Below are positions 1,142 through 51,511 of a stretch of DNA of 64,000 nucleotides, in pieces. Origin of the DNA: Patescibacteria group bacterium (GTDB taxonomy: Bacteria; Patescibacteriota; WWE3; UBA101185; UBA10185); contig JBMORU010000001.1 in assembly GCA_049322215.1 (NCBI GenBank), forward strand, positions 900,023 through 964,022, given 5' to 3'. Position 1 is the first letter of the stretch; the number at the start of each line of letters is the position of its first letter. The translations under genes and the position numbers were made by a program. The notes under the pieces were generated by a model. The model did no database searches. It had not been told where the DNA came from and was given only the letters and a program-made list of their open reading frames with translations.

Positions 1142-1217
1142 GCACCCGTAGCTCAGTGGATAGAGCAGTGCCCTTCTAAGGCAAAGGTCGGAGGTTCAAA
1201 TCCTCCCGGGTGCACCA
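1142..1217 (+). tRNA. tRNA-Arg (anticodon TCT)
   Basis: The acceptor stem GCACCCG/CGGGTGC closes with ACCA. The D-arm reads TAGCTCAGTGGATAGAGC and the T-arm GGTTCAAATCC. The anticodon loop CTTCTAA has U33 and A37. Confidence 0.8.
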
Positions 1218-1294
1218 TAAAGAAGGCTTACAAAGTAAACTTTTTGAAAACGCATTTGTGTGTTACAACACACAAAGTTGAAAAACTATTATAT

Positions 1295-1382
1295 GGGCGA
1301 GTGGCGGAATTGGCATACGCGACAGACTTAAAATCTGTTGAGATCTAATCTCGTGGGGGTTCGAGTCCCCCCTCGCCCACCA
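1295..1382 (+). tRNA. tRNA-Leu (anticodon TAA), long variable arm
   Basis: The acceptor stem GGGCGAG/CTCGCCC closes with ACCA. The anticodon stem ACAGA/TCTGT encloses the loop CTTAAAA. A long extra arm precedes the T-arm GGTTCGAGTCC. Confidence 0.8.
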
Positions 1383-1470
1383 CAACTTTATTATAACTTT
1401 TCGCAAAACTTTAACTCATAAAAAAAGGTGTCCAGTACGTTTTTAAAACACACTAAACACCAAAAAAAAA

Positions 1471-2031: not shown

Positions 2032-2136
2032 GTCTTTTTGCTCTCCTTATGTGATGAACAGTTATAATTATCAGCATTATAGCAGGGTATATTGTATACT
2101 TTAAACTAATACTAACAAAATTGTATAATTTCTAAA

Positions 2137-3434: not shown

Positions 3435-3448
3435 AGGGCACCAAATGT

Positions 3449-3763
3449 TCAGTCAGGTAGTGGGGAATCAGGGAAGGTAAAGCATTCAACTAATTTCATG
3501 CCATCTCGATATTGGGGGCAAACGGGACGGCTGTTTTCTGCACTAACTCTCCAATTAGTAATTGAGGTTACACCTGTGCCTTCATTTACAAAAGTTCTTT
3601 CGTAAAGTCCTTCAAAAGAGTAACCTGAATCTTCTATAGCTTCACCTGCGGTTGCCGTGCTTACTATGTTTCCATTTGCTACATTTATTACAAGTAAACC
3701 CACAACAAGCATTATTACTAAAGCTATTGGATGCCACCACTCTAGACCAAGTTTCTTAGCCAT
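3449..3763 (-). CDS. Small membrane-anchored or secreted hypothetical protein
   Basis: ORF with an N-terminal TM or signal segment. A GGAG-like sequence lies upstream. Confidence 0.3.
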   Translation of the reverse strand: MAKKLGLEWWHPIALVIMLVVGLLVINVANGNIVSTATAGEAIEDSGYSFEGLYERTFVNEGTGVTSITNWRVSAENSRPVCPQYRDGMKLVECFTFPDSPLPD

Positions 3764-3830
3764 GATAAGCCTCCATATTTGTGATTTAAATAATTTTAGC
3801 AGTAAAAATTACGGAAGTAAATTTTATAGG

Positions 3831-9336: not shown

Positions 9337-10239
9337 ATGGAAATACCACCCAACCTTAAAACACTTTATAAACACTGGAATAAGCACACAGCCCAAACAT
9401 TACCTAAAACCAACCTTAAACTACCCACAGAACTAACATGGTTTATGGCAGAACGCATGAAAATTTGGGCTAAAAAAAACGCGGGCTTAAACCCACCTTA
9501 TACAGCTGACAAAACTCTACAAACATATAAATTTTGCAATATATACAGAGAACTAGACAGACAAACAATAGAAATACATAGCCATTTAAAAAATTTGCAA
9601 AGTGATTTTTCCCTTTGGTTGCTAAATATCGCATTTCACAGATTTGTGTGCAACCCAAATACAGTTAAAAACGTAGGTCTTTTGAATTATGACTCGCAAA
9701 ATAATAGGGAAGTATATGAAAAGTTACTTAACTTACCTAAACCTAAATATGGTGTTCCTTATGTTTTTCCTATAAGCGTAATTCAAAAATCAAGCTATGA
9801 AACACGCGAAAAGTTTTTTTGCCACTATTTACCTAAGAGAATTCCCACAGTAGCTAAAACAGTACAAAACTTTAATAACACAACTGTTAACAGTGCATTA
9901 GCGCAAATATTGCCTGCGTTTGGTTTCAACTTTAAATTCCACTGGACTGAAATATTAATCGATATCGCTTATCAGTTTCCTAATTTGATTAACTTATATG
10001 AAGATTTTTATATAGGCCCAGGAGCGATTCCTACAGCTAAATTAATTAACCCAAATCAAAATCCAAAAATACTTATAAATATCTGTATAGGAACTAAACC
10101 GGAGAATTTTCCATATTTAACTTTTAACAGCAACCCGGTTTTACTATCTGCAGAAAACTGGGAAGGAATATTTTGCGAATATAGAAAATATACAAACCTA
10201 AAAAAAGGGCAGGGAAGAGTTAGAAGATTTAATCCCTAA
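9337..10239 (+). CDS. Hypothetical protein (300 aa)
   Basis: ORF track. No recognised motif. Confidence 0.35.
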   Translation: MEIPPNLKTLYKHWNKHTAQTLPKTNLKLPTELTWFMAERMKIWAKKNAGLNPPYTADKTLQTYKFCNIYRELDRQTIEIHSHLKNLQSDFSLWLLNIAFHRFVCNPNTVKNVGLLNYDSQNNREVYEKLLNLPKPKYGVPYVFPISVIQKSSYETREKFFCHYLPKRIPTVAKTVQNFNNTTVNSALAQILPAFGFNFKFHWTEILIDIAYQFPNLINLYEDFYIGPGAIPTAKLINPNQNPKILINICIGTKPENFPYLTFNSNPVLLSAENWEGIFCEYRKYTNLKKGQGRVRRFNP

Positions 10240-10257: not shown

Positions 10258-12531
10258 TTATAACTTAGTAGACTTTAACCTTAATGCATTCATAACAACC
10301 GATATGCTTGAAAATGCCATGGCACCACTAGCTAACATTGGGTTTAATAATATGCCTAAAATAGGGTATAAAGCCCCCATAGCAACAGGAATTAAAATAA
10401 TATTGTACCCAAACGCCCAACCTAGATTTTGTTTTATATTCCTCATAGTTGCTTTAGAAAGTTTAATAGCTTTTGGTACCAAAGAAATATCTCCTCGCAA
10501 TAGTGTTATGCCCGCCGATTCTATTGCTACATCAGTACCACTTCCCATGGCAACGCCTATGTCTGCAGTAGCCAAGGCAGGGGCATCGTTAATGCCATCG
10601 CCAACCATAGCAACCACACTTTTTGTATTTCGTGTTTGCAATTCTTTAACCTTTGCAGCCTTATCTTCAGGGAAAACCTCTGCGAATACTTCATCAATAC
10701 CTAACTCTTTAGCTATTGCTTCTGCTGTTACTTTATTATCTCCAGTTATCATTACTGACGTAATTCCCATATCTTTAAGCACTTGAATTGTTTCCTTGGA
10801 AGATTTTTTAATTGAATCTGAAATACCAAGAAGCGCTACATTTTTTTTATCTACACTTACAAAAGAAACTGTTTGTGCTTTCTTACGAAGGCCTTCTGAT
10901 AAATTTGTTAAATCAGCACACTTCATTACCCCCTGTTGATCCATTAGTTTTTGTGTGCCTATTAGTACTTCATGACCATTTACATAAGCTTTTACACCAA
11001 GGCCAGACATGTCTTCAAAGCGTTCCGCCTCATAAACTTTATTGTTCTTTAAGTGGTTTACAACAGCTTCTGCTAAAGGATGATGTGATTTCTTTTCAAT
11101 TGAAAGAATTAACGAAGATATGTAAGCTTTTATATCAATCTCTTCAGGAATTTCCCAATTCAAACTACTTACAACCTCCTCAAGATTATTCATAAACGCA
11201 AATGTCTGCACCTCGGGTTCACCTTTTGTTAAAGTTCCTGTTTTATCGAAAACTACATAATTCACTTTATTTGCTACTTCCAAGCTCTCAGCATTTTTTA
11301 TCAATATACCGTTTTGAGCACCCTTACCAGTACCCACCATAATAGAGGTAGGGGTAGCAAGTCCTAAAGCGCAGGGACACGCAATAATTAATACGGCAAT
11401 AAGGTTAACCAAAGCTAAAATAAACGAAGGTTGAGGTCCAAAATTAAACCATATTAAGAACGTAACAATTGCAAGCATTAAAACTACAGGAACAAAATAA
11501 GAAGATACTGTATCTGCCAACTTTTGTATTGGTGCGCGAGATCCTTGCGCCTGTTTTACCATTTCGATTATTTGAGATAGCATTGTTTCGCTCCCAACTT
11601 TTGTTGCTTTCATTTCAAAAGAGCCACTTTTATTTATAGTCGCACCTATAACTGTATTTTCTACTACTTTTCTAACCGGCATACTTTCGCCAGTAACCAT
11701 GCTTTCATCTACAGCGGATTCTCCTTTAGTTATTACACCATCTACAGGAATTTTTTCTCCAGGTTTAACAATTAATATATCTCCAACAACGATTTGGTCT
11801 ACGGGAATTTCTAGCTCTTCCCCATCTCTTAATACTCGTGCTGTTTTAGCCTGCAAGCCAAGTAGTTTTTTAATTGCTTCCGAGGTTTGCCCTTTTGCCC
11901 TCATTTCCAAAAACTTACCAAGCAAAATCAAGGTAATAATAGTTGCGGAAGTTTCAAAATATACATGTGGTTCTATTCCAAAGTTTAAAAGTTGTGTCTC
12001 AAACAAAACCACAATTACAGAATAAAAATAGGCGACAGAAGTACCAATTGCAATCAAGGTATCCATGTTTGCTGTACGATTTTTAAGACCAGACCATGTA
12101 CTTTTGTAATACTGAGCTCCTACCCAAAATTGCACGGGTGTAGATAAAATCCACATTATCCAATAGTTTTTTAATATAGCAGGAGCAAATGGAATCATTG
12201 CACCAAAAAGCAAGAAGAATGTAAAAAAGCTACTCCAAACAAGTTTTGTTTTTACCTCCTTTACTTCTTTTGCCTTTTCTTTTTCGACTAAATCTTCTTG
12301 AGATTCGTTTTCCTGTCCAATTACTGCTTTGTAGCCCACATCCTCAACTGCTTTTGCAAAATCTTCTGTTTTGCAACTATCCTCATGCTCTACAGTTGCT
12401 TGTTCATTTGCATAATTCACGTGGGCAGATTTAACTCCGGGCAAATTTTCTAGACTCCTGCCAACATTTATTGCACAACTTGCACAATGCATACCTGAAA
12501 CATGAAATGTTGTTTTTTTAATATTACTCAT
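10258..12531 (-). CDS. copA: Copper-translocating P1B-type ATPase
   Basis: An N-terminal HMA domain carries GMHCASCA. The TM metal site CPC ([10 protein letters not shown]) is present. The phosphorylation motif DKTGTLT and the hinge GDGINDAP are present. The start is set at MSNIKK, which has an AGGAG RBS and an ATGA overlap with the upstream gene. Confidence 0.9.
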
Positions 12532-12899
12532 AAATCTGCTCCTGACTCTACAACCTTTATTTTTCCGTGAAACATGTTCATTCCACATGAAATTTCATAT
12601 TCTCCAACTTCTGCAGGGTTAATTACGATATTAGTAGTTTTGTTTAGTCCCAAGTGCTCTCTAATATTAAAATCTGGAATTACAACTTCGTCTAAACAAG
12701 AACTTGCATCTTTTCTATAAAATTTTAAGGTTACTGGCTTACCTTTTTTGACTTTGATTACATTTGGTTTATAGCCACCTTCTACAGTAATAGTTATCTC
12801 GTTTGTAACTTCTACGGCTTTGCTTTCTTTTTTCATAAAAAAGAACCAGTAAGTAAAAATTATTAATAGTATTCCTAATAAATTAATTAGTATTGTCAT
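12528..12899 (-). CDS. Cupredoxin-like small copper-binding protein (membrane-anchored)
   Basis: 123 aa with an N-terminal TM. The C-terminal motif [16 protein letters not shown] carries Cys/His/Met ligands, as in cupredoxin-fold domains. Its stop overlaps the copA start. Confidence 0.5.
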
Positions 12900-13034
12900 G
12901 TTTTATTTCCTTAATAACTTTCTTTAAGAGGACACACTCCTAATATTGCAAAATTGTTATAGTTCATATTAAGTTTAGCTTTTATAATCGGTTTTGTCGT
13001 TTTTGAAATACTGTAGTTATTCATAAATTTCAAC

Positions 13035-13472
13035 TTATAGTGCCCACTCGAATTTAAGAACTTCACCTTCTATTTCAGTTATAGTGAGAAAAATTGTCGT
13101 TGCTTGTGGATTCATTGTAGAAAATTGAAGTTCTCCACTTAAGTGATGTCCTCCGCGATCACCACTCCAAGACACCGGTTGATATTCATTTCCCTCATTG
13201 TCCGTTAAAGTAATTATTTTCTTCAGGTCAAAATCTAATTCTACAGAATGAGTATTGAGAGTAATCTCAAAATTGGAAGTACTTAGTGGGGTAACTTGAA
13301 CGTTTACAGCACCCATTGTTCCACTTTTAGAATCAAGAGGGTTTGTGTCAGATACGGATGTTGTAGGTTTTTCTGCTTTTGGGTTTGAAATAAATACCCA
13401 ACCTAAAAACACTAATAGTAATATTGTTATTGGAATAATAAACTTTTCAAATTTTTTCATAATTAGCTCCAT
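13035..13472 (-). CDS. Secreted hypothetical protein in the copper operon
   Basis: 145 aa with an N-terminal TM or signal. Predicted beta-rich. A GGHH motif is present. Confidence 0.35.
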   Translation of the reverse strand: MELIMKKFEKFIIPITILLLVFLGWVFISNPKAEKPTTSVSDTNPLDSKSGTMGAVNVQVTPLSTSNFEITLNTHSVELDFDLKKIITLTDNEGNEYQPVSWSGDRGGHHLSGELQFSTMNPQATTIFLTITEIEGEVLKFEWAL

Positions 13473-13944
13473 ATAAGTGTTTGAGCATAAAACCTATCCC
13501 AAACAAATTAAAAACTATACCCACAGCAAAAAGTTCTTTTGTGTAAGCTCCTAAAAAAGATGCGAGCGCAGAGGCACCTAAGATAGGTAAAACATCTACT
13601 GCATGATGCGCACAACAAGCAACCATTGTTGCAGTACTGGTGGCACCGGTAACTTTAGATACTTTATTAGTTTGCATTGTTTCCATGTGTTTAATTTGCA
13701 ATAACTTAGATAATGCAAGCTGCATTCCGAAACCTAAAGAAAGTGCCAATATCCAAGGACGGTAATAATTAAACTGAGAAATTGCAGTTTCCATACTACC
13801 TGTAGTGATTCGCATTAAAATGAGATATATGGCAAGTAAAAAGGTAGTTCCAAATACAAAATATGTAATTAGTTTAAAGAGCTTATTAGTGTTTTCCACA
13901 ACAATCTCCATTTTCTTCTTTGTTTTCCAACTCTTTAGTTTCAA
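13447..13944 (-). CDS. Small polytopic membrane protein with a CC..HH motif
   Basis: The segment TATMVACCAHHAVDV lies in a TM or loop region. The gene overlaps both neighbours. Confidence 0.35.
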   Translation of the reverse strand: MKLKSWKTKKKMEIVVENTNKLFKLITYFVFGTTFLLAIYLILMRITTGSMETAISQFNYYRPWILALSLGFGMQLALSKLLQIKHMETMQTNKVSKVTGATSTATMVACCAHHAVDVLPILGASALASFLGAYTKELFAVGIVFNLFGIGFMLKHLYGANYEKI

Positions 13945-14812
13945 CCTCTACTGTAGTATTTGTATCTCTTGTAGATAGAGCATGTTTAATAATTACAGTC
14001 AAAAATAAAACAATAGCCACAAGAAATATTGCATTAGCACCGGGAACAGAATTTAGCTTTAGTGCTAAACTATTTATATTCTCAGAAAAGCCCTGCGCCA
14101 TTTCTGCCATCGAAAAATCGGTTGCAAGGGCTAAATACACAATTACAAATCCCATTATTGTAAAAATGAAAAACGATATTACATTTCCCATTATTATTGG
14201 ATAGGTTTTAGAAAGTATTTTTATTTCACTCAATTTTCTCTTAAAAAACTTCATACCTAAAACTTTTTTCGTATCTAAAAAGTATGCGCCTATATACAGG
14301 GGAGTAACCATTCCCAAAACATACACAAAACCTATAAGCAATGCTTGCCACAAACTAGGGGACATAATGCTAAGGGTCAAAACTCCAACCAGTACAGGGG
14401 CACAACATGCGCTAGTTATACCTGAGAAAACACCTAAAGTGAAAATAGAAACAACATCCGTACCTTGTTTGCCCGACTGGTTAATATGTGGCATTGGAAG
14501 TTTAAGTCCTAATAAAGAGGCCAATCCAACCAGAATCATAAAAGTACCACCAAGCAAATAAATTTGTTCATGATACCTAAAAACTGCAAGAGAAATTAGT
14601 TTTGAGCCCAAAACTGCAGGAATCATTACAACAAATATGCCTAAGGAATAAACTAGCGTCATGAGTAAAACTCTTTTTCGCTCCTTAAAGACTGAGCCTA
14701 AATATGCAGGAAGCAAATACGACACACAGCATGGGGCAAATAAGGCTACCATTCCTGCCAAAAACGCTGCAATTATTGACGTTTGAAAAAGTATTGCTTC
14801 ATTCATAATCAA
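13886..14812 (-). CDS. CcdA/DsbD-like transmembrane thiol-disulfide or metal transfer protein
   Basis: Polytopic. Paired cysteines sit in TM segments at FAPCCVSYLLPAYLG and TSACCAPVLVG, reminiscent of the DsbD/CcdA SPCxxP core. The C-terminus ends in the tail GDCCGKH. Confidence 0.4.
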   Translation of the reverse strand: MIMNEAILFQTSIIAAFLAGMVALFAPCCVSYLLPAYLGSVFKERKRVLLMTLVYSLGIFVVMIPAVLGSKLISLAVFRYHEQIYLLGGTFMILVGLASLLGLKLPMPHINQSGKQGTDVVSIFTLGVFSGITSACCAPVLVGVLTLSIMSPSLWQALLIGFVYVLGMVTPLYIGAYFLDTKKVLGMKFFKRKLSEIKILSKTYPIIMGNVISFFIFTIMGFVIVYLALATDFSMAEMAQGFSENINSLALKLNSVPGANAIFLVAIVLFLTVIIKHALSTRDTNTTVEVETKELENKEENGDCCGKH

Positions 14813-15828
14813 ACTCCGCAGCCGCCACCACCACCTGAACCTTGTACTGGTTTAACCTTTGCAAGCACTGATCTATATCCTGAACCGCTAGAAAACTCTG
14901 CACCTAAAACTTCTTTAGCTACTACAGCAGCCCATTCAAGGTTTCTTTCATCTTCCATATACTTTGCAATTGTTAAGTACGTATCGGGAAACCAAATAGA
15001 ATTTACCGCAAGAGCACTGTTGTAAATTTCATCTTCGGAGTACCCTTTAGCAACCATCATTTCTATTAGACCAAGCATAGCCATACCATGATTACAGTCT
15101 GCAAATGCCGTATGATTATTACAACAAGGTCTATATATGTTTGATGCTATTTGCTTAATCAAAACTTGTTGTTCGGGAGATAAATTAAACAAATTATGTT
15201 TACCATAGTGATCCATTGCACTACCTTGAGCTAAATTCCAACCTCCTGTAGCTGCAAGATTTTCCACTTGAGGATATTCTGAACGCATATCTTCTAGAAC
15301 TAAACTTTGTTGAGCCAAACCCAATGCCCATAGAGCATTTAACACAAATCTTGAATTCTCCCTAGTTAAAACAATGGCTTCATCGTAATTAGTTGTCAAA
15401 ATCTTAGTGTAGTCCGCATTTGCTTTGCTTAAAGGGCCACCTCTAAATAAACTTAAAAATTTTTGCTGGTCTATTACGCCTACGCTAACTAGCTTTGTAC
15501 CAACATCACCCCACTTAACAGGTAACACCACACCCCCCTCGGGAAGTACTGCAACCTCTAGCCTTTGTGCTTGTTTTTCTGGTGTATTTTCTAACTCCTC
15601 ATTTAATTTTTCCTTATAGGCAATAAGCGCATTTACTTGAGATCTATAAAAGTAATATTGAATAATCGCAACACCTAGTGTGGAGTTAAATGTTATTAAT
15701 AAAACAAGAGACATGGGGACACTCTTTTTCAAAAAGCTTTTCATTGAGGTGTTAAAACGTCTAGGCTTTGAAAAGTCACCGGAGTTCGAAGTTTCTAGTA
15801 CTTTTTCTTTCATAAAACTATCTTTCAA
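14809..15828 (-). CDS. Membrane-anchored Cys-containing hypothetical protein with a Gly-Cys C-terminal tail
   Basis: 339 aa. It contains RPCCNNHTAFADCNHG. The C-terminus reads GSGGGGGCGV. An ATGA overlap joins it to the downstream gene. Confidence 0.35.
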   Translation of the reverse strand: MKDSFMKEKVLETSNSGDFSKPRRFNTSMKSFLKKSVPMSLVLLITFNSTLGVAIIQYYFYRSQVNALIAYKEKLNEELENTPEKQAQRLEVAVLPEGGVVLPVKWGDVGTKLVSVGVIDQQKFLSLFRGGPLSKANADYTKILTTNYDEAIVLTRENSRFVLNALWALGLAQQSLVLEDMRSEYPQVENLAATGGWNLAQGSAMDHYGKHNLFNLSPEQQVLIKQIASNIYRPCCNNHTAFADCNHGMAMLGLIEMMVAKGYSEDEIYNSALAVNSIWFPDTYLTIAKYMEDERNLEWAAVVAKEVLGAEFSSGSGYRSVLAKVKPVQGSGGGGGCGV

Positions 15829-15829
15829 A

Positions 15830-16342
15830 TTAATCTACTTCTTTGCTAACTACGTTTCCTGTGAGCCTAAACTCAACCGTACGATTACTTGGATCATTGG
15901 TATCAAATGAAACTAAACGAGTAATTGGCCCGGTGCCTTGAGGTCCATGAAACAGGGGATCAAATACAACCTTTACTTCGGCAGTGGAATCTGGCGCTAA
16001 TGTGCCTTTCCAACTAGATGTAGCATGCATACCAAAAGCAGGACTTTGTACTCCAGCAATAGTTACTTGAGCTTCTGTACACATACAAGAGGTCTTGAAA
16101 TTCGATATATCAAGGTTTGAAGTACCAGCATTCTTAATTAGAAAAGTCTTTTCTACATTGCCGCCCTCAATGTCTATTTCACCCCAATCGTGCAACTTGG
16201 CACCTAACACCTCAACTTTTGCGTCCCCACTGCTTTCTAAAACCGGAGGCTGTGTTTTAGTTGCAAAAATAGTGCCTAAAATTAATATAAAAACTGTAGA
16301 AATACCTATTAAGCTTATTAAGATTTTGTTTTCCTTAGTCAT
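15830..16342 (-). CDS. DUF1573-like secreted or membrane-anchored protein (paralog A)
   Basis: HDWGEI...KTFLIKNAGTSNLDISNFKTSCMCTEAQV fits the DUF1573 pattern of a beta-sandwich with a CxC motif. A second conserved block reads FDPLFHGPQGTG. Confidence 0.5.
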   Translation of the reverse strand: MTKENKILISLIGISTVFILILGTIFATKTQPPVLESSGDAKVEVLGAKLHDWGEIDIEGGNVEKTFLIKNAGTSNLDISNFKTSCMCTEAQVTIAGVQSPAFGMHATSSWKGTLAPDSTAEVKVVFDPLFHGPQGTGPITRLVSFDTNDPSNRTVEFRLTGNVVSKEVD

Positions 16343-16359
16343 TTAGCAAACCTTTCTAC

Positions 16360-16848
16360 TCAATCTAAAATTTTTACATAAATATCAAATTGCATTTCTG
16401 GTGAATTAGCATCATTAGTTTTCACAAATACCGAACGTGTTAGCTCACCTTGAGGTTCTTCATGAAAGTTTGGATCAAAATAAACTGTTAGTTGAGCCTT
16501 TTCATTAAACCCGAGTATTGTTTTATCTACTTCTGCAGACGTACACCCACAAGATGTAGAAATATCACCAATCTCTAGTTGTTCTTTACCGTGGTTTTCA
16601 ATTTCAAAAGTGGTACTAACAACACCGTCATTTCTAGATATAGAACCAAAATCATGCGTATTATTATGTGTTTCTGCTAAGGGTTTATTGTAATTAATTT
16701 CACTGTGATGAACTCCCATCATTCCTACACCCATATAGTTATTAAACCTGTTTATGCCTAGTAAATAAGATAGAGTGGCAACATTCATTAAAACTAGAAT
16801 TGCAATTACTCCATAAAGTACTTTTTTCTCCGTCATATCCGTTTGCAT
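16360..16848 (-). CDS. DUF1573-like secreted or membrane-anchored protein (paralog B)
   Basis: HDFGSISRNDGVVSTTFEIENHGKEQLEIGDISTSCGCTSAEV, with a second block YFDPNFHEEPQGE. It is clearly paralogous to 15830..16342. Confidence 0.5.
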   Translation of the reverse strand: MQTDMTEKKVLYGVIAILVLMNVATLSYLLGINRFNNYMGVGMMGVHHSEINYNKPLAETHNNTHDFGSISRNDGVVSTTFEIENHGKEQLEIGDISTSCGCTSAEVDKTILGFNEKAQLTVYFDPNFHEEPQGELTRSVFVKTNDANSPEMQFDIYVKILD

Positions 16849-17115
16849 TTAATTCTTTCTATAAAGAGAATAAATTTTCACTAATTCATCTATAGCTTTA
16901 TCTTCTTCACCATTTTTCATTTGTTCGACCACACAACCGTTTATATGCTCTTCTAAAATTTGTTTGTCTATCTTTTGTAATGATTTTTGAATGGATAAAG
17001 ACTGGGTAAGTACATCTACACAGTATTTACCTTCTTCTATCATTTTTGAGAGACCCTCAATTTGACCAGCAATGATTTTTAATTTGTGTGAAGTTGATTT
17101 TCTATCGTATTCCAT
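16849..17115 (-). CDS. csoR: CsoR/RcnR-family metal-sensing transcriptional repressor
   Basis: 88 aa. IAGQIEGLSKMIEEGKYCVDVLTQ...EEHINGCVV carries the conserved Cys-His-Cys metal ligands of the CsoR family. It is the first gene of the operon. Confidence 0.8.
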   Translation of the reverse strand: MEYDRKSTSHKLKIIAGQIEGLSKMIEEGKYCVDVLTQSLSIQKSLQKIDKQILEEHINGCVVEQMKNGEEDKAIDELVKIYSLYRKN

Positions 17116-17121
17116 GTGATG

Positions 17122-17146
17122 AATACTACTCCCCCCTATTGGTATT
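17122..17146. promoter_or_regulatory. Candidate CsoR operator in the divergent promoter region
   Basis: AATACTACTCCCCCCTATTGGTATT has ATAC/GTAT arms flanking a C6 tract. It resembles B. subtilis CsoR operators of the form TACCC..GGGGGTA. It lies between csoR and the divergent HMA gene. Confidence 0.4.
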
Positions 17147-17228
17147 AGTCAAGTTCCTTAACAAAACAACGTTATCAAAATGCGAATTGAACTATATAAT
17201 TATTAAACTAACAAGTTAAAATTTAAAA

Positions 17229-18602
17229 ATGCAAAAAAAGGATAAAAAGAGCAATAAAACAAAAAAAAGATATTTTGTACAAGGCATGCACTGCAGTACC
17301 TGTGAAATACTTATTAAACAAGATATTGCAAATCTTCAGGGTATAAATAAAGCCACTGTTTCTTTAAGTAAGTCACATGTAGTTATTCATGCTAATGAAA
17401 CAACTAACATTCCTTCAAGAAACACTTTAAATAAGTTATTTAAAGAATTAGGTTACACTTTTCACGAACAAAAGCCCAAAGAACAAAAACTTAGTAGGGA
17501 AGAGTCTTTAAAAATTATAGGAATAGCACTACTATTTATCATCGCTTTTTACACACTAGAAAAATCCGGAATATTTATGAAATATTCTATAACTGCTCAA
17601 TCATCCTTAGGAGCATACTTTGTTTTTGGATTAGCTGCCGGAATTTCAAGCTGCGCAGCACTTGTTGGGGGGATTTTACTGTCACTTTCGAAAAACTGGA
17701 ATAATATGTATGCAAACAATAAAAGAAAGAGTGTTCTACCTTTTATTTACTTTAACTCATCAAGAATACTAACCTTTGCGCTACTTGGAGGAATATTAGG
17801 GTACCTTGGAAGCTTTTTACAATTATCTATAACATTAACCTCAATTTTAACTTTACTTATTGCATTACTAATGCTGGCATTAGGATTTCAAATGATTGGG
17901 ATTAAGTGGTTTAATAAGTTTAGTTTTAACTTTGTTGGAAACAATAAATACCTAAACAAAAACTCAGAACTAAACGGCAAATACATACCCTTAATAGTAG
18001 GCGCCTTAACTTTTTTTGTTCCATGTGGATTTACCTTAATTGCTCAAACTAACACATTAAATGCAGGTAGCTTTTACAAGGGTATGCTTCAATTAACTGC
18101 GTTTGCACTAGGAACCCTACCAATATTGGCATTGATTAGTTTTTCGAGTGTTAAATTTTACTCAAACCCGAAGTTTGCAAAAAAATTTAGTTTGTTCTCA
18201 GGCGTAATCATAGTGTTTTTTGCACTTTACACAATAAACTCACAGCTAAATGTATTAGGTTTAACAAGCCTTAACGATATTTCTTTTTCAAAAAGCGTAA
18301 CTAGCAAAAGCGACATACAAATAAATAATGCTAATTACCAGGTAATACAACTTGAAGCTATTGGGTTTGAATATTATCCAAAAGAAGTAACAATTCAGTC
18401 GGGAGTGAAAACGCAGTGGTCGATATACGATAATGGGTCAGTGGGTTGTGCTAAAGCAGTATATGCTAGGGGACTATACCCAGATGTCATTTACTTAAAA
18501 CCTGGCATGAACACTGTTGAATTTGTTGCGCCCAAACCAGGTACATATAAAATTTCTTGTTCAATGGGAATGGTACCTCCAGTAACTGTTAGGGTTATAT
18601 AG
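17229..18602 (+). CDS. HMA-domain / polytopic membrane / C-terminal cupredoxin-like fusion protein
   Basis: The N-terminal region reads GMHCSTCEILIK, a CxxC HMA domain. The middle has about 8 TM helices with TM cysteines at SSC and VPCGF. The C-terminus reads YKISCSMGMVPPVTV, homologous to the C-terminus of 12528..12899. Confidence 0.55.
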   Translation: MQKKDKKSNKTKKRYFVQGMHCSTCEILIKQDIANLQGINKATVSLSKSHVVIHANETTNIPSRNTLNKLFKELGYTFHEQKPKEQKLSREESLKIIGIALLFIIAFYTLEKSGIFMKYSITAQSSLGAYFVFGLAAGISSCAALVGGILLSLSKNWNNMYANNKRKSVLPFIYFNSSRILTFALLGGILGYLGSFLQLSITLTSILTLLIALLMLALGFQMIGIKWFNKFSFNFVGNNKYLNKNSELNGKYIPLIVGALTFFVPCGFTLIAQTNTLNAGSFYKGMLQLTAFALGTLPILALISFSSVKFYSNPKFAKKFSLFSGVIIVFFALYTINSQLNVLGLTSLNDISFSKSVTSKSDIQINNANYQVIQLEAIGFEYYPKEVTIQSGVKTQWSIYDNGSVGCAKAVYARGLYPDVIYLKPGMNTVEFVAPKPGTYKISCSMGMVPPVTVRVI

Positions 18603-24935: not shown

Positions 24936-26027
24936 ATGAAAAAGAAGTATTTTCTACTTTTAGTATTATCATTTGGCACCTTAGCAATTGTAATACTTTT
25001 AATTCCACAGTTTGTTAAACAAAAAAACTATATAGAACGTGCTCAAAAAAAATACGAGGAAATCGAGCAAACACCTTTACAAAACCCAACAGTAGATACA
25101 ATACCCTTAAACAAAAAAGTCTACCTATTAATATATAATCCAAAAATAAACGACCAGTACACAAATGAGTATTTTGGTTGGAATGACCCAGAAGAAATTA
25201 CGAATGAAGTTATCGCCTTTTTCAAAAATGTTTCTGAAGGCTATTTAAATTACGAAATAGTTCAAAAAAAGGTTGTAGAGGAATTTCCTGCAAAAGAAGA
25301 CGGCTTTGTATATACATTTGAAAACTATATTGAATGTGTAAATAGCAATGGGGAAAAATGCCATGATCCCGATATAGCCGACTACGTAAAAATATTAGAT
25401 GCGAACAACATTTGTGAAATGTTAAATAACGATGAGATTGACGAACTATGGCTTTGGGGAGGCCCTTGGTTTGGATACTGGGAATCAAATTTAGCAGGAA
25501 GATATTCGTTTTGGTATAACTCTAACCCTACACACTTTAACACCTGTAAAACACCTTTACCAATTATGGGTTTCAACTACGAAAGAACAAAAAACGAAGC
25601 TATACACAATTTTGGTCATAGAGCAGAGAGTACTTTAAAAAGAGTTTTTCAGTCGTGGGATGCAGAAAACACGCATGGATGGAATAGATTTGCACTACTT
25701 TCAAGGAATAATAATGGCCAAGGGGGTTGTGGAAACACACATATTACAGTAAATGGTACCGAAGATTACATTTACACAAATAAAGATAATGTAATGTCTA
25801 ATTGTGAAGAGTTTAAAGATTATCCCAATATAGAAAATACTTACAAAATGGTTAATTGCAATGACTGGGGCTGTGATGAGTTTGAATACTATACTTACTG
25901 GTGGAACAATATTCCAAGAAACACAGGAATAAATAAAGATGCTTTTACAGGCCAAGAAGTACTAAATAACTGGTGGAAATACATTTTTGATTTGAGCTGG
26001 ACATACAATAAAACAACTACTTATTAA
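24936..26027 (+). CDS. Secreted Cys-containing hypothetical protein
   Basis: N-terminal TM or signal. Multiple Cys residues. W/Y/N-rich. Confidence 0.4.
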   Translation: MKKKYFLLLVLSFGTLAIVILLIPQFVKQKNYIERAQKKYEEIEQTPLQNPTVDTIPLNKKVYLLIYNPKINDQYTNEYFGWNDPEEITNEVIAFFKNVSEGYLNYEIVQKKVVEEFPAKEDGFVYTFENYIECVNSNGEKCHDPDIADYVKILDANNICEMLNNDEIDELWLWGGPWFGYWESNLAGRYSFWYNSNPTHFNTCKTPLPIMGFNYERTKNEAIHNFGHRAESTLKRVFQSWDAENTHGWNRFALLSRNNNGQGGCGNTHITVNGTEDYIYTNKDNVMSNCEEFKDYPNIENTYKMVNCNDWGCDEFEYYTYWWNNIPRNTGINKDAFTGQEVLNNWWKYIFDLSWTYNKTTTY

Positions 26028-26090
26028 GCCCATAGTATGATATAATTTCGCAAATAAAACTTAACAAACACCTTATATAAGGAGAGACAA

Positions 26091-27608
26091 ATGAACGTAG
26101 TTTATTGGCAAATGGGAGCTTTGGTAGTAGTTATTTCTGCTGTCATAGGTCTTATTGCGAAATACGCATTGGATAAGTCAGAATCTGACTTGGAAATTAC
26201 CTGGACAGAGTATGCTATTGCTGTTGTGCTAATTTCTGTGGCTTTAGGCCCCTTTGCTGTTTGGCGAGGATCTGAAATTGCACGAAACAACCTTAAGTCG
26301 TTTAACGAAAACATCAACGCGGTAGTGACAGGTGTCAGCATTTCTCAAAAAACCTGCGAAAGAGATGGGGACTGTGTACACACCTATGACTGTGACCGCT
26401 ACAGATGTTCTTACTCATGCGATAGTGACAATGATGGGGACAGCGATGACACTTGCTATAAGTGGTGTTATCACAGTTGCCCATACTGTAGCGTGGAGTA
26501 TCAGCTGTTAATTCACACAAACACCGATGGTTGGTCTGGACGAAATCCGGTTATTGCTTCAAATATCATTCCTCCGGACGCGGATCAAAATTACCGCTGG
26601 CGTCAAAGTGAAGCCATTCCCCAAGGAATTCAAGATGCGTATGGGCGTTACCCGCAACAGTTTTTAGACGCCTTTTACAACCTGCAAAATGGCACCGAAG
26701 CACTACCATTTGTGTACCGGCGACAGTACAACAGTTACACGCTGGCTGCAAATGTTGATTCACCTGAAGAGTGGCAAGATGAAATTACATTGTTGCAACA
26801 GCACAAGCCCAATTTGATGCCAACACTGCAAACAACGGTAACAGGCAGCAACCAGGCGCACCGGGTTTACTTTGTAGGATTTACGCCAACGCCTGCGCAA
26901 GCGCAAGAATGGACAACCACCTTAAGCTATATCAACAGCCCGTTTGGTAACGACAGACAAGGCGACTTGCATGTAGTCATTATTAACAAGCAGGGTGTTG
27001 ATATGAGTTTGACAGATGCCCTAACCGCCATAAAGTACGACTGGCAAAACAGTGCAAAGTACGGCGATGACACCATGGCCAAAAATGCAGTATTGGTTGG
27101 TTTGGAAACTGACGACGGAGCAACAGTATTTCGTGCTGCAATGGTAACCGGCATGCCAGAAGAATTGTTTGATTTGCAGTATAACGATGATTTGCGTGCT
27201 GCAATAGCAAACGACTTAACAAATAAAGGGTTACCTCTTGACCCACAAGTTTTGTTTGGCCGTGCCACAATGCCTTTTACACCACAAACTGAGGAATGCA
27301 CAATTTTTAGCTGCTTTCGTGGTGTGGGGCCAGCGCAGCTTAGTGGGGGTGTTTTGACTGAGCGCTTGTTTGGTGTAACCAACCCGGAGTTGGCATTTCA
27401 GCGAATTAGCATGTCTGCCAAAGATCCAGAAGACGTAGGTCCCGGTTTTGTGGCACTTGATGAGCTAATTATTCCAACACCAAAACAGCAAACCTGGATC
27501 GTGATTTTATCAACGGTGTTTGCTTGCCTGGCTTGGGTTGCTACCGCACTGATAGGACAAAGGTATCGACCGTTTTACAACAGATATAGTAGATTTGGTA
27601 GGTACTAA
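26091..27608 (+). CDS. Membrane protein with an extracytoplasmic Cys-cluster (GC-elevated gene)
   Basis: Two N-terminal TM helices are followed by the Cys cluster CERDGDCVHTYDCDRYRCSYSCDSDNDGDSDDTCYKWCYHSCPYCSV, a large ectodomain and a C-terminal TM. GC is about 45-50% against about 33% background. Confidence 0.4.
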   Translation: MNVVYWQMGALVVVISAVIGLIAKYALDKSESDLEITWTEYAIAVVLISVALGPFAVWRGSEIARNNLKSFNENINAVVTGVSISQKTCERDGDCVHTYDCDRYRCSYSCDSDNDGDSDDTCYKWCYHSCPYCSVEYQLLIHTNTDGWSGRNPVIASNIIPPDADQNYRWRQSEAIPQGIQDAYGRYPQQFLDAFYNLQNGTEALPFVYRRQYNSYTLAANVDSPEEWQDEITLLQQHKPNLMPTLQTTVTGSNQAHRVYFVGFTPTPAQAQEWTTTLSYINSPFGNDRQGDLHVVIINKQGVDMSLTDALTAIKYDWQNSAKYGDDTMAKNAVLVGLETDDGATVFRAAMVTGMPEELFDLQYNDDLRAAIANDLTNKGLPLDPQVLFGRATMPFTPQTEECTIFSCFRGVGPAQLSGGVLTERLFGVTNPELAFQRISMSAKDPEDVGPGFVALDELIIPTPKQQTWIVILSTVFACLAWVATALIGQRYRPFYNRYSRFGRY

Positions 27609-27660
27609 ACCTAATGAGTCATTTCTTGAAGCAACAAACTTTAAGAAGTGACTCTTTTTT

Positions 27661-28749
27661 TTATTCATCTACACAAAGCAGTAAATCGTAGAATACAGAC
27701 TCGTTCGTGGGAGTTTGATTTGCATAAGTTGCTTTTACACTGATTTCATAAACTTTATTTGCGTTATATACGCGTGTCGTTTCCCAAGGAGCATTGGGTA
27801 TCAAAAACCAACCTTCTCCAGGGTTTAAACCACTATCAGGGTATATTCCTAATGTTTCATCAGCAGCCTCTTCAGTGGGACCCTCCATAATTACTGTAAA
27901 GCTTTCATGCTGTTGCGGAGGAACACCGCAGCTACCACCATCTGGGCATTGGTAACAAAGTGGGCCATCGGGACATTGTTCAGGATGCCCCTCGCCTGCG
28001 TAGCCTACAATATAAAGTCTGGAAGGTTCATCAAAAACTATTTCATAGGTATCGGTTGCAACCCCTTTAGTCACTACTAAGTCAGTTAAGCGTGTTAGTT
28101 CTTTTGTTCCAGAAGGACATGCAAGCACAGGGGGATCCCAAGCTTCACATAAACCACAATCACTAGAACACGAACTACAAGACTCACTTGCAGAACAATC
28201 TCCATCTCCACACACTGGGGCACAAGTACCACAATCTGCAGAACAGGTAGAGCAACTTTCACTACCATTGCAGTCTCCATCACCACAAATTGGAAGTGAT
28301 GTGCTTCCTCCCGAACATGAGTTTTCTATAGCAGCACAGCTTTCTTCATGCTCGAAAACTTCATTATCAATTGAACAAAAGCTTAAGCATCCCACGTCGA
28401 AACGAGTTGCATCGATAGCGTAACCATCTGGGGATCCAGCAACATAGCGATATGAATATAGGGCGCCTTCTGGGGTTCCATTTGGCCAATTAGATATTTG
28501 TGTGGCAACACCAGCTTCATCCATAATATTATCGTCACTATTTGTATCTTTCGGGTAATAACCCTCAATAATTCTAAAGTTATGTAAACCTTCTTCGAGT
28601 TTTTTTAAATTAGTTCTAACTACTGAATTTTTTGTGGCATCAACCTGACCCCGTCTGTTTATTACATTTACAACAACACCAGAAAGCGCAGCAATCATTG
28701 CCACTACAATTAAAACTTCAATTAAAGTAAATCCTTTTTTGTTAGTCAT
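27661..28749 (-). CDS. Type IV pilin-like protein with 2 tandem Cys-rich 24-aa modules
   Basis: The N-terminus MTNKKG|FTLIEVLIVVAMIAALSGVV is a class III prepilin signal with Glu+5. The middle carries 2x CGDGDCxxSESCSxCSxDCGxC. The C-terminal domain is shared with the next gene. Confidence 0.65.
   Translation of the reverse strand: MTNKKGFTLIEVLIVVAMIAALSGVVVNVINRRGQVDATKNSVVRTNLKKLEEGLHNFRIIEGYYPKDTNSDDNIMDEAGVATQISNWPNGTPEGALYSYRYVAGSPDGYAIDATRFDVGCLSFCSIDNEVFEHEESCAAIENSCSGGSTSLPICGDGDCNGSESCSTCSADCGTCAPVCGDGDCSASESCSSCSSDCGLCEAWDPPVLACPSGTKELTRLTDLVVTKGVATDTYEIVFDEPSRLYIVGYAGEGHPEQCPDGPLCYQCPDGGSCGVPPQQHESFTVIMEGPTEEAADETLGIYPDSGLNPGEGWFLIPNAPWETTRVYNANKVYEISVKATYANQTPTNESVFYDLLLCVDE
28144..28287 (-). 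repeat. Two in-frame 72-bp tandem repeats encoding Cys-rich modules
   Basis: Same module as 29213..29572, here in two copies. Confidence 0.65.
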
Positions 28750-30058
28750 CTATACAAAATAATAAAGTATATCGCACCGATTCGTTAATAGCCGTGGCAT
28801 CTGCATATGTAGCACGAACTCTAACTTCATAGGCTTGCCCAACAGCGTAAGTACTAGAAGTAACCCACGGTAATCCTGCTAACATGTACCAACCATCGTC
28901 AGGGTTTAAACCACTATCGGGGTAAATACCCAATTGTTCAGGCAGTGGTGGGCCAACGGTACGTGCTACTTCAACAATAAAACTCTCATGTTCTTGTGCT
29001 TGGCCACATAATGGCCCACTAGGACAATCTTCTGGGTGGCCTTCTCCAGCATAACCATACATATAAATTTTAGAAGGTTTGTCTAGGTTAATTAAGTATG
29101 TATCCATTGTTGCACCACTGCTACTCCAAGTAACTACGGAGTCATTCATATAAGCTATATCATGCTGACCAGCAGGACATGCAAGACTTGGGGGTGTTAT
29201 TATTCCGCAGCTTGAACAATCTGCTGAACAAGTGTTGCACCATTCATTGGCAGAACAAATCCCATCACCACAAGAGGGCGCACATACACCACAGTCCGAA
29301 GAACAACTAGAACAGGACTCACCAACATTACAGATACCATCGCCACATGTGGGACCACAAGCACCACAATCAAGTGAGCATGAGGCACAAGTTTCACCAT
29401 CGCTGCAAATACCGTTTCCACAAGTTGGTGGACAGGCACCACAGTCTATTGAACAACTACTACAAGTTTCACCCCCATTACAGCTTCCATCACCACAAGA
29501 TGCTGCACACGCACCACAATCGGTTGCACAAGTTGAACAGCTCTCACCACCGTTACAGCTTCCATCACCGCAGGTAGGTGGTGGGGGAGGGGGAGGACCT
29601 GATGTAGCACCTGTACATGAGTTAACAATAGATGAGCAATCAACTTCATTTTCAAAAATTGAATTGTCTATAGAACAATAACTCAAGCAGCCGGTATCAA
29701 ACCGGGTTGCATCTAATACATAACCTTCTTGGGGAGAGTCTATATATGTGTAGGTATAAGTAGCACCTTCTGGAGTTTCATCGGGCCAATTTAAAATGTA
29801 AGTGCCCACACCAGATTCATCCATTATGCTGTTATTACTATTTGCATCTTGTGGATAATATCCTTCGGAGATTTTAAAATTTCCAATTCCATCAACAAGT
29901 TTTTCTAAATTTACTCTAACAACAGAATTTTTTGCAGTATTAATGTTTCTTTCGCGATTAATTGTAACTATTGCTACACCAGTAACCACACCCAAAAGGG
30001 CAATAACGATAAGGAGTTCAATAAGTGTAAAACCAAAATTTCTGTACACTTTTCTCAT
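28742..30058 (-). CDS. Type IV pilin-like protein with 5 tandem Cys-rich 24-aa modules (paralog)
   Basis: The start is reassigned to MRKVYRNFG|FTLIELLIVIALLGVV. A poly-Pro (P7) tract precedes 5x CGDGxCxxxExCxxCxxDCGxC. Its N- and C-terminal domains are about 55-60% identical to those of 27661..28749. It overlaps the downstream pilin gene by 8 nt. Confidence 0.65.
   Translation of the reverse strand: MRKVYRNFGFTLIELLIVIALLGVVTGVAIVTINRERNINTAKNSVVRVNLEKLVDGIGNFKISEGYYPQDANSNNSIMDESGVGTYILNWPDETPEGATYTYTYIDSPQEGYVLDATRFDTGCLSYCSIDNSIFENEVDCSSIVNSCTGATSGPPPPPPPTCGDGSCNGGESCSTCATDCGACAASCGDGSCNGGETCSSCSIDCGACPPTCGNGICSDGETCASCSLDCGACGPTCGDGICNVGESCSSCSSDCGVCAPSCGDGICSANEWCNTCSADCSSCGIITPPSLACPAGQHDIAYMNDSVVTWSSSGATMDTYLINLDKPSKIYMYGYAGEGHPEDCPSGPLCGQAQEHESFIVEVARTVGPPLPEQLGIYPDSGLNPDDGWYMLAGLPWVTSSTYAVGQAYEVRVRATYADATAINESVRYTLLFCIDD
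29213..29572 (-). repeat. Five in-frame 72-bp tandem repeats encoding the Cys-rich modules
   Basis: The periodic TGC/TGT pattern is visible on the DNA. It generates long shadow ORFs in several frames (track ORFs 29200..29681). A G-rich tract GGTGGGGGAGGGGGAGG lies just 5' in the coding sense. Confidence 0.7.
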
Positions 30059-30126
30059 ATATATATAGGATACATAAAGAAAAGCGCTAGGAAAAGCATT
30101 ATTTTTACAGCATAATATATACAGTA

Positions 30127-31344
30127 ATGGATAAGTACTATTCAAAGATATCTCGAATACTTTTAATTATTATTATACTTGGATTAGCTTATACTCTTGG
30201 AAAATGGGCGATTCAAATAAAAACAAATTCAAACACTATAAGAAAACAAGACAAAATTAAAGCACCTGTATCAGTAAAAAATGAACAACCAGAAAAAAAA
30301 CCTTCCTTTAATGACACAATTGAAGTTTACAGAAAACAAAAAGAACAAGAAATAGCTCTTGTTGAATCTAGTGTTTACAGTTTGCCAAACATAATAAGGT
30401 GGAATGACTATTTAATTTACGAAAATAAAGACAAAAACGTAATACTTGAAAATACAAATAATTTCGAAGAAAAAGTACTAATAGCAAAGGACTTTCTTGA
30501 AAATATAGATACAAATGGTAAGGGTATAAATCTTGCAGTATCGGCATATATTAGTGATTTTAAAATTATAGATGATGTACTGTACGTTTCTTATGGAGGA
30601 TATCTTATTGAAGGTGCCATATTTTGGATAGATTTATATAATATAAAAGAGCCACAAATCCTTAGAAGAGGTCCCAACCCACACATAGTGAAATTTGGTA
30701 AAGACTATTGGGTTAGAGAAGGTGAAGGTGACGCGTGTTGGGGATTTGCGCGATTTACACCCGTGAATTTAAATGAAAAAAGTTTAGGTTCAACACTAGA
30801 AGTTACCAGTGGTTGCACAGAAGGGGAATACTTACTGGGCTGGGATACAAAAACAGAGGCATTTATAACCACAAACTACACACGAGAAGATCCTTACTTT
30901 GGGTCAACTACGTATTTAGCATTAAACAAACTTGAATCTGATGGCACAAGAACAACCTTAATAAACATAGACTCCAACTTAGGGGCAAAAATAAAAGACG
31001 TTATTTTATCAAAAACTGAGAGTAAGGTTTACTTGTCCGATGCACAGTCATTGTATATGTACAACATTCCAACTAGTCAATTAAGTAAAATAGGTGATTA
31101 CGAAGACAAAGCTAAAGAACTGCAATTTATAAAAGTGTTAGAAGAAGGCGGTATATGTGTAAGAACAAATGATACAGCTCCTAATAAGCTTATAGATCAC
31201 ACAACGGCAAAATTTATACCGGATACAACTAAAAGATGCAACGACGGTGAAAATCTTTACGGCAAAGACAGATACGTTAAAGAAAATGTAGACTTTCTGC
31301 AAATATTAAGTGATTTGGAAAATTATAATTACAGAATAAAATAA
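30127..31344 (+). CDS. Membrane-anchored extracytoplasmic hypothetical protein
   Basis: 405 aa with an N-terminal TM. It is divergent from the pilin pair. Confidence 0.4.
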   Translation: MDKYYSKISRILLIIIILGLAYTLGKWAIQIKTNSNTIRKQDKIKAPVSVKNEQPEKKPSFNDTIEVYRKQKEQEIALVESSVYSLPNIIRWNDYLIYENKDKNVILENTNNFEEKVLIAKDFLENIDTNGKGINLAVSAYISDFKIIDDVLYVSYGGYLIEGAIFWIDLYNIKEPQILRRGPNPHIVKFGKDYWVREGEGDACWGFARFTPVNLNEKSLGSTLEVTSGCTEGEYLLGWDTKTEAFITTNYTREDPYFGSTTYLALNKLESDGTRTTLINIDSNLGAKIKDVILSKTESKVYLSDAQSLYMYNIPTSQLSKIGDYEDKAKELQFIKVLEEGGICVRTNDTAPNKLIDHTTAKFIPDTTKRCNDGENLYGKDRYVKENVDFLQILSDLENYNYRIK

Positions 31345-51109: not shown

Positions 51110-51511
51110 TTAGTGAAGTTCGTGAAAGCGCACCCAGAGATCAGGCAAATTGTAGCCTTCAATGTAACCACCTTCGCAGTCGGTGTTTACATACACCTGA
51201 TTGGTACGCTCCGAAATGTTCGTTACAACGCCACGTCCACGTACCAACTTGTAGGGAAGTAACCATTTCAGTGCGCCGGTATTTTCAACCGAAGTGGTGA
51301 AATCAAAGTTACCTCCAACATTAGGTCTGTAATAGGCATCACCATCGATAATCGATGACGTTGGAACAGTGATATGACGTAATACTGGATGTGTTACTAC
51401 AAGATCCACATCACTGCTACGTTCTCTCATGACGGTTCCTTTAAGGACAGTTGAAAACAACCCTCCCCAAAACCGTACCTTCACACGGTAGATATAAAAA
51501 ATGTTACGCAC
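51110..51511 (-). CDS. Small hypothetical protein (GC-elevated)
   Basis: ORF of 133 aa. Confidence 0.3.
   Translation of the reverse strand: MRNIFYIYRVKVRFWGGLFSTVLKGTVMRERSSDVDLVVTHPVLRHITVPTSSIIDGDAYYRPNVGGNFDFTTSVENTGALKWLLPYKLVRGRGVVTNISERTNQVYVNTDCEGGYIEGYNLPDLWVRFHELH

Follow-up and report, generated by a model that had tools for sequence, protein, structure and literature searches.

A predicted pilin pair beside a GC3-rich membrane-protein gene in a Patescibacteria genome

When neighbouring genes all encode envelope proteins and also differ in base composition from the DNA around them, do they form a unit, or do they only happen to be neighbours? This question is raised by five consecutive genes at positions 24936-31344 of a 64-kb stretch of DNA (hereafter, the window) from a Patescibacteria group bacterium, which belongs to the Candidate Phyla Radiation (CPR). 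The genes encode, in order, a 363-amino acid (aa) protein, a 505-aa membrane protein, two pilin-like proteins of 362 and 438 aa (pilins 1 and 2), and a 405-aa protein. A note made from the letters of the window alone (the original prediction) took them for a surface-protein island of raised GC content, with pilins that are either assembled by machinery encoded elsewhere or part of a laterally acquired adhesin cassette. We examined this region together with the genes called up to 10 kb to the right of the window. Our results make it probable that the pilins are native, tandem accessory type IV pilins whose machinery would be encoded elsewhere, and that their neighbour, by chance, is an isolated representative of a TPM-like/LemA-like module family with an intrinsic richness in GC at third codon positions (GC3).

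Base composition and gene layout

Between 26.0 and 30.0 kb, the GC profile rises to 0.41-0.47, with a 1-kb sliding maximum of 0.468, against a window mean of 0.354. Gene by gene, GC is 0.327 for the 363-aa gene, 0.456 for the 505-aa gene, 0.413 for pilin 1, 0.410-0.422 for pilin 2, and 0.319 for the 405-aa gene. The bump is therefore real, and its flanking genes are indeed at 0.32-0.33, but the middle genes span 41-46% GC, not the 43-50% (against about 33%) that had been reported for them.

For each gene, we calculated an expected GC from two inputs, its amino-acid composition and the codon usage of the 66 remaining genes in the window, and expressed observed against expected GC as a z score. 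By this measure the pilin genes are unexceptional. Pilin 1 has a GC3 of 0.245 and observed and expected GC of 0.415 and 0.424 (z -1.1), while pilin 2 has a GC3 of 0.239 and corresponding values of 0.422 and 0.436 (z -1.9); the background GC3 of the window is about 0.26. Their GC is carried by codon positions 1 and 2 (6-9% Cys plus Gly, Ser, Ala, and Pro). The raised GC of the pilins is a by-product of codons for these five amino acids, which account for it fully, so what had been read as a compositional deviation of the pilins is explained by their amino-acid content. The flanking genes are also native in composition (363-aa gene, GC3 0.29 and z -0.9; 405-aa gene, z -1.3). Among the five, only the 505-aa gene deviates at synonymous sites. 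Its GC3 is 0.431, with both G and C raised at third positions, and its observed GC of 0.457 against an expected 0.404 (z +7.8) makes it the strongest outlier in the window. The pilin genes are a cautionary case, in that repeats rich in Cys, Gly, and Ser can by themselves produce a GC bump. Three of the proteins had been called Cys-rich, a description that suits the two pilins (6.1% and 8.7% Cys, with a background of about 1%) but hardly the 363-aa and 505-aa proteins, which contain only 2.2-2.4%.

All five open reading frames (ORFs) of the original prediction are present at the coordinates it gave. The 505-aa gene (26091..27608, plus strand) converges on pilin 1 (27661..28749, minus strand), and between them a terminator-like hairpin (27616..27654, plus strand), with a 16-bp stem followed by a T run, divides the 505-aa gene and the pilins into two transcription units. 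Pilin 2 (28742..30058, minus strand) shares 8 bp with the start of pilin 1, and given this overlap the two pilins are probably co-transcribed. The pilin 2 ORF is open up to a TTG at 30145. We consider the ATG at 30058 the most likely start, because it yields a 9-residue leader (MRKVYRNFG|FTLIE) of normal length and avoids an overlap with the divergent 405-aa gene (30127..31344, plus strand). The region is bordered by housekeeping genes, for an MPG glycosylase and a NUDIX protein on one side and for a dUTPase on the other.

That all five products are envelope proteins is correct, but such a run is to be expected by chance. A transmembrane (TM)-like segment is found in 61% of the ORFs in the window, the longest run of such ORFs is seven, and a run of at least five occurs in 97% of permutations. 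An adhesin cassette acquired laterally, consisting of either the whole five-gene stretch or its three GC-rich genes, would fit the rise in GC over about 4 kb, the envelope location of all five products, and the presence in the pilins of a C-terminal domain without relatives (see below). We nevertheless regard it as very improbable: the pilins have the GC3 of their host (0.24), a terminator and convergent orientation split the region, and no signature of mobility was found around it, be it an integrase, a transposase, an adjacent tRNA gene (the nearest are 5.9 kb and 43 kb away), or a flanking direct repeat. The only repeats in the region are those internal to the pilin paralogs. The intergenic gaps contain no noncoding RNA or riboswitch, and tRNAs were the only such genes found in the window. 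Moreover, in the loci compared (50 for the 505-aa family, 38 for the 363-aa family), no two of the five genes occur together, and no pilin adjoins the family gene in any of the 50 other loci of the 505-aa family. The region is best explained not as an island but as envelope genes of three unrelated kinds that came to lie together by chance.

The pilin pair

The two middle minus-strand genes had been identified as pilins, and this holds up: the prepilin motif of each scores above curated cut-offs for both the Pfam N_methyl model (PF07963; 27.2 and 29.3 bits, cut-off 21.2) and TIGR02532 (25.9 and 25.0 bits, cut-off 16.3). The cleavage sites, as read from the sequence, are MTNKKG|FTLIEVLIVVAMIAALSG in pilin 1 and MRKVYRNFG|FTLIELLIVIALLGVVTG in pilin 2. 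Both proteins have a short basic leader that ends in Gly (MTNKKG|FTLIE in pilin 1), with Phe at +1 and Glu at +5, followed by a hydrophobic helix of about 20 residues, and their N-terminal 60-65 residues match solved pilins (the Geobacter PilA N-terminal domain and GspG). Judged by these features, they are type IVa-style prepilins.

The pilins are tandem paralogs (44% identity), set apart by an indel that changes the number of repeats. In pilin 1, a GspG-like head is followed by two copies of a 25-residue unit containing six Cys and then by a C-terminal domain of about 159 aa; pilin 2 has five copies of the repeat. The unit reads CG[DN]GxCxxxExCxxCxxDCxxC, and its consensus can also be given as CGDGxCxxxExCxxCxxDCGxC. 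At the DNA level, the repeats lie at 28147-28287 in pilin 1 and 29207-29572 in pilin 2, with a period of 75 bp. These copies share just 63-70% identity, which makes the array an old one.

Searches with the full-length pilins returned only repeat-driven matches to unrelated secreted proteins (from Sorangium, Deltaproteobacteria metagenome-assembled genomes [MAGs], and metagenomes), and the proteins matched by the repeat only lack precomputed Pfam domains. The six-Cys repeat itself was hit by none of the NCBIfam and Pfam models at E <= 0.1. For the C-terminal domain of about 155-159 residues, a profile built from the two paralogs and searched against 5.8 billion proteins found only a fragment of the same organism's paralog, and there was no match in viral contigs. 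An AlphaFold2 (AF2) model made from the two sequences was poor (predicted local distance difference test [pLDDT] 45), with only the C-terminal strands reaching 75-86. Its Foldseek matches were weak and of a generic kind, to jelly-roll or carbohydrate-binding module (CBM)-type sandwiches. From this model, the C-terminal domain is probably a beta sandwich, with a hint of likeness to jelly rolls.

The architecture of the pilins suggests that they are large accessory (tip or minor) pilins. A prepilin peptidase and a type IV pilus (T4P) motor encoded elsewhere in the genome would process and polymerise them. In each, the GspG-like head would be extended by a rigid, disulfide-rich stalk of two or five repeats and tipped by the C-terminal domain, and with their unequal stalks the two pilins could hold out this domain for binding at two distances. 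In this episymbiont lineage, such an orphan domain, borne on a stalk whose length varies with its repeats, would be a candidate module for host binding.

Where, then, is the assembly machinery? The original prediction had noted that the window holds no genes like pilB, pilC, pilM, or pilD, and we agree: Pfam scans of selected window ORFs, which covered most of those with at least 100 aa, found no T2SSE, T2SSF, PilM, or Peptidase_A24. The genes called up to 10 kb to the right of the window are all housekeeping genes, including those for ThrRS, IF3, L35, L20, and PheST, with no T4P machinery among them. T4P are nearly universal in Patescibacteria, and in a cultured Saccharibacterium, Nanosynbacter lyticus TM7x, the T4P genes are spread over four loci, one of which contains five pilins only and another an orphan pilin (PMC11623550). 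Assembly by machinery encoded elsewhere in the genome is the most likely arrangement, as it fits this near-universal occurrence and the pilin-only loci of TM7x; for Patescibacteria, it is nothing unusual that a pilin locus lacks assembly genes.

The same system offers the closest comparison. The largest minor pilins of TM7x bear C-terminal binding domains, and the C-terminal parts of pilins diverge fast, with little similarity across phyla (PMC11623550). TM7x PilX1 and PilX2 resemble the window pilins in their prepilin leader, G|F..E motif, hydrophobic helix, small head, and added C-terminal domain, as well as in a locus without assembly genes. Unlike PilX1 and PilX2, the predicted window pilins are extended by two or five six-Cys repeats and a domain of about 155 aa without relatives. 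The repeat has its own parallel in the Myxococcus cysteine-rich repeat (TIGR02232), whose short tandem units, also found in secreted proteins, likewise begin with CG[DN]G and keep their Cys in a fixed scaffold. Large exported Cys-rich proteins have also been noted in the CPR Peregrinibacteria (PMC4736985), and can be likened to the window repeats as Cys-rich extracellular repeat proteins. In contrast to all of these Cys-rich repeat proteins, the window repeat is grafted onto a pilin and matches no model.

Alternatively, the pilin-like proteins could be pseudopilins or competence-type pilins that serve in DNA uptake or secretion, and not adhesive T4P subunits. GspG, GspH, and ComG models do match in part, over the N-terminal 30-90 residues, and Saccharibacteria are reported to be naturally competent (PMC10187176). 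These matches are, however, far under the curated cut-offs (36 against 88.85 bits) and reflect mainly the shared N-terminus. Pseudopilins, moreover, measure about 100-150 aa, and the window proteins, which are longer (362 and 438 aa) and equipped with both stalk and terminal domain, are unlike them; no com or gsp genes lie near the pair. We therefore find this alternative unlikely, and prefer to view the two as accessory T4 pilins.

One protein recovered as a match in the pilin searches, P0022 (430 aa, NCBI), combines a prepilin peptidase (Peptidase_A24 plus DiS_P_DiS) with a complete pilin module (…TGFTLIEVLIVIG…). It is a fusion of peptidase and substrate in a single polypeptide.

The 505-aa protein and its family

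At NCBI, an entry from a MAG, 'hypothetical protein ACOZAO_05035' on a 1.11-Mb contig of a Patescibacteria group bacterium, has the same sequence as the 505-aa protein. A word-indexed search with this protein gave 7 relatives, and an exhaustive profile search gave 469 cluster representatives (50% identity clusters), 264 of them below 1e-30 and mostly full length. None of the 64 members scanned contains a Pfam domain. Three hydrophobic segments are present in 52 of 52 full-length members. In the window protein, TM1 and TM2 precede a domain of about 400 aa, which is followed by TM3 and a basic tail. By counts of Lys plus Arg under the positive-inside rule, the large domain of the family faces outward, and the loop between TM1 and TM2 is inside, as is the C-terminal tail. 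The outside domain is predicted to consist of a beta-rich Cys subdomain and then a TPM-like alpha/beta sandwich. The hosts, judged from 49 GTDB loci, include many CPR lineages, Obscuribacterales/Melainabacteria, and a few 'Proteobacteria' MAGs.

The likeness to TPM proteins comes from structure prediction. The AF2 model of the 505-aa protein has a pLDDT of 74.8 overall and 85-92 over residues 260-400, and in a Foldseek search against the PDB, TPM-domain structures accounted for seven of its nine best matches (2KW7, 3PVH/3PTJ, 5ANP, 2KPT, 7TBR, and 9H70). The same structures have been listed as a TPM set, whose sequences are highly divergent (PMC13456599). The family may share with TPM proteins (PF04536: TLP18.3, Psb32, MOLO-1, BA41, PG_0361, and Rhom172_1776) an alpha/beta/alpha sandwich, which is its best structural match, and resembles them in the predicted extracytoplasmic position of this domain with a C-terminal TM after it and in an adjoining LemA-like gene. 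It differs from them in having two additional N-terminal TMs, a Cys-bearing beta subdomain, and no match at the level of sequence.

TPM-domain proteins are often encoded with LemA (PF04011), although we found no literature support for LemA-TPM operons. In the 505-aa family, a partner gene for a single-TM protein of about 210 aa adjoins the family gene in 33 of 51 loci, and the sole PDB match of a profile of this partner is LemA itself (2ETD, E 0.0018 over 112 positions). We looked for the partner gene in the window and found it absent. The window copy forms its own clade with those of loci L001 and L003, all three of which lack a partner. By analogy with TPM and LemA proteins, the most likely role of the 505-aa protein is in maintaining the envelope or a membrane complex. 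Its gene is a separate unit with its own terminator, and a lone member of a family that is usually paired with a LemA-like single-TM gene.

The pair is also found in phages. Two IMG/VR contigs carry both module genes; one is clearly a phage, and its pair corresponds to PHROG 2087 and PHROG 1383. The same two genes are likewise adjacent in phages RaK2, K64-1, FLC9, and phiA8-29, and comparison by hhalign gave probabilities of 98.8% (505-aa family against RaK2 ORF174) and 97.7% (partner). These are large phages, RaK2-like and Ackermannviridae. The module lies at 7992-10263 in L093, 2653-4688 in L092, 2992-4640 in L094 (RaK2), and 2785-4446 in L095 (phiA8-29). The phage genes (ORF174/ORF175 in Klebsiella phage RaK2, orf_011/orf_012 in Aeromonas phage phiA8-29) are homologous to the bacterial pair and have the same order, but their products, unlike the bacterial ones, are shorter (about 355-365 aa), and they are 23-25% identical to the metagenomic phage copy. 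The window protein itself gives no direct match to the RaK2-type phage proteins. What emerges is a sizeable uncharacterised membrane-protein family that, together with its partner, has homologs in a gene pair conserved among jumbo phages and Ackermannviridae.

Two details of the phage loci deserve mention. In RaK2, a TelA-like 'tellurite resistance' gene and one for a putative peptidase stand just upstream of the module. The L093 contig, a 196-kb phage contig, has a DNA polymerase gene split by a homing or HNH endonuclease gene (80-4181) and, just downstream of the module, an IS200/IS605-like TnpA and TnpB pair that we identified by reading the sequences.

Is the high GC3 of the 505-aa gene peculiar to the window? 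Both the family and its partner are richer in GC3 than their neighbours in nearly every genome, as seen in loci L004-L050 and L092-L095 besides the window. In 40 of 44 loci, family GC3 exceeds the median of neighbouring genes. Once differences in amino acids and local codon usage are removed, the family has a median z of +4.9, with values above 2 in 34 of 43 loci, and the partner has a median z of +6.4, whereas control genes (n=410) have a median z of -0.1 (family against controls, Mann-Whitney p 4e-13). Across hosts with GC3 from 0.25 to 0.77, family GC3 follows host GC3 (r 0.87, slope 0.94) with an intercept of +0.135, and the window copy sits on this regression line (residual z 0.65). Because a donor of fixed GC cannot give an offset that is positive over this whole range of hosts, the excess is a trait of the family and not a sign that the window copy was imported recently.

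A recent import of the 505-aa gene only, possibly by a phage and from a GC-richer donor to whose composition the gene still conforms, is a rival explanation for its z of +7.8. Other observations could be fitted to it: the two closest relatives have 44-46% GC in hosts with a GC3 of 0.28 and 0.36, family members on phage contigs branch beside the CPR clade, further Pfam-less ORFs with high GC3 are found in the window, and the partner gene is absent from it. But the excess is positive in AT-rich as in GC-rich hosts and scales with host GC3, which is not possible from a fixed donor pool, and the residual of the window copy is ordinary. In addition, CPR and Obscuribacterales sequences separate in a neighbour-joining tree, and neither mobility signatures nor att sites were found around the gene. 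A recent import is therefore doubtful, and we hold to a family-wide excess. Candidate causes of this excess are GC-biased gene conversion associated with recombination, steady exchange with slightly GC-richer relatives or phages, and selection on mRNA. Codon bias of the kind linked to expression was considered and rejected, as the genes for L20, L35, IF3, trigger factor, and ClpP have a GC3 of 0.21-0.27 in this genome.

Several results weigh against our view of native accessory pilins beside a lone TPM-like/LemA-like gene. No T4P machinery was seen in the examined part, i.e. the window and about 10 kb to its right, and the argument for a pilin tip adhesin is one of architecture, with a model at pLDDT 45 and weak jelly-roll matches. 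For the 505-aa protein, the TPM matches have a Foldseek E of about 0.01 and TM-scores of about 0.47 to their targets, PF04536 is not matched in 64 family members, and profiles A1 and A2 match no PDB chain. The Pfam LemA model (PF04011) is below threshold in the partner, with matches in 2 of 28 members and a best E of 0.0082 (16.4 bits against a cut-off of 26.2). In phages, the partner bears the label 'virion structural protein', which sits poorly with a role in the host membrane. Finally, the clade to which the window copy belongs lacks the partner, so conclusions drawn from the module may not transfer to it.

A bolder reading, which we put forward tentatively, gives more weight to the phages and the silent sites. 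It holds that a Pfam-less two-gene module, made up of a 3-TM TPM-like ectoprotein and a LemA-like partner, occurs in CPR, Obscuribacterales, and large phages, including CPR-associated phage contigs, with silent sites that stay richer in GC than the host genome in nearly all lineages. As a separate point, the pilins may serve this lineage specifically as an adhesin for recognising the host, with a disulfide stalk that can be tuned. If this is true, the GC-rich silent sites of the module could mark unusually frequent recombination or exchange between phages and hosts. The family-wide GC3 offset and the module shared with phages are in our opinion the only parts of this locus that deserve further attention, the rest being ordinary.

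The dense Cys/Asp cluster described for the 505-aa protein, with its stated spacing, can be read directly in the sequence: 10 Cys fall within 45 residues, spaced as C-x5-C, C-x5-C, C-x4-C, C-x3-C and so on up to a CPYC. It had been proposed that this is a metal or redox module. Apart from the CPYC and the many Asp residues, a metal-binding or thiol-redox role could appeal to the ortholog at locus L001, which adjoins a DsbD-thioredoxin fusion, and to a cluster of copper and DsbD genes that the window holds at a distance of 8-16 kb. The cluster, however, lies in the extracytoplasmic domain, only C89, C95, C101, and C130 are near-invariant across the family, and the number of Cys per member varies from 1 to 12, with some members having 1-2. 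The CPYC is restricted to the window protein and its closest homolog, P0002, and the even Cys total of the window protein (12) is compatible with disulfides. We accordingly rate a metal or redox module as improbable. The dense cluster looks like a trait of the small clade of the window copy, and would most simply form disulfides.

At L001 (2154-3860), a gene for a fusion of DsbD_TM with a thioredoxin/redoxin domain is next to what is the closest homolog of the 505-aa gene (53% identity); this would fit a disulfide-rich ectodomain, though it is a single instance.

Flanking genes and other observations in the window

The 363-aa protein (24936..26027, plus strand) is N-terminally anchored or secreted and belongs to a Pfam-less family of about 300 aa. 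We found this family in 38 metagenome loci (L054-L091), with 27-51% identity and in hosts of 28-68% GC. The motif PIMGFNYE is invariant, and H-R-x-E and GCGN..H are near-invariant. Homologs are fused to CarboxypepD_reg, SdrD_B, DUF7402, CBM96, Big_7, and type IX secretion system (T9SS) sorting domains, and often to extracellular immunoglobulin (Ig)-like or CBM domains. The 363-aa protein has no Pfam, PDB, or phage match, and no neighbour is shared with the window in the 38 loci. It seems to define a widespread extracellular domain, and by its sequence looks like an uncharacterised secreted enzyme. The 405-aa protein is N-terminally anchored, with no relative in Pfam, the PDB, or phages. A phage origin of the two flanking genes was rejected, as neither has a phage match. 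Both are best explained as native bystanders, the 363-aa gene being unrelated to the pilins.

Elsewhere in the window, Pfam-less ORFs at 61108-62385, 62420-63565, 55458-56039, 51110-51511, 53345-53962, 58603-59139, and 1471-2031, several of which encode membrane proteins, have a GC3 of 0.38-0.42 (z 3.3-5.7 with amino acids held fixed). They adjoin ribosomal and IF3 genes with a GC3 of 0.21-0.27, and could be an accessory or foreign class of genes.

What looks like a cluster for the handling of copper or heavy metals spans 10258-18602. It contains genes for an HMA P-type ATPase, a CsoR-like 88-aa ORF, an HMA+DsbD_2+cupredoxin-like fusion, two DUF1573 Ig-like proteins, and a DsbD-like membrane protein with a CC motif. 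Beside it, at 9337-10239, a 300-aa ORF in this CPR chromosome matches the 5-hmdU DNA kinase helical domain (PF18723, E 5.5e-20), which is of a DNA-hypermodification type that is usually phage-borne.

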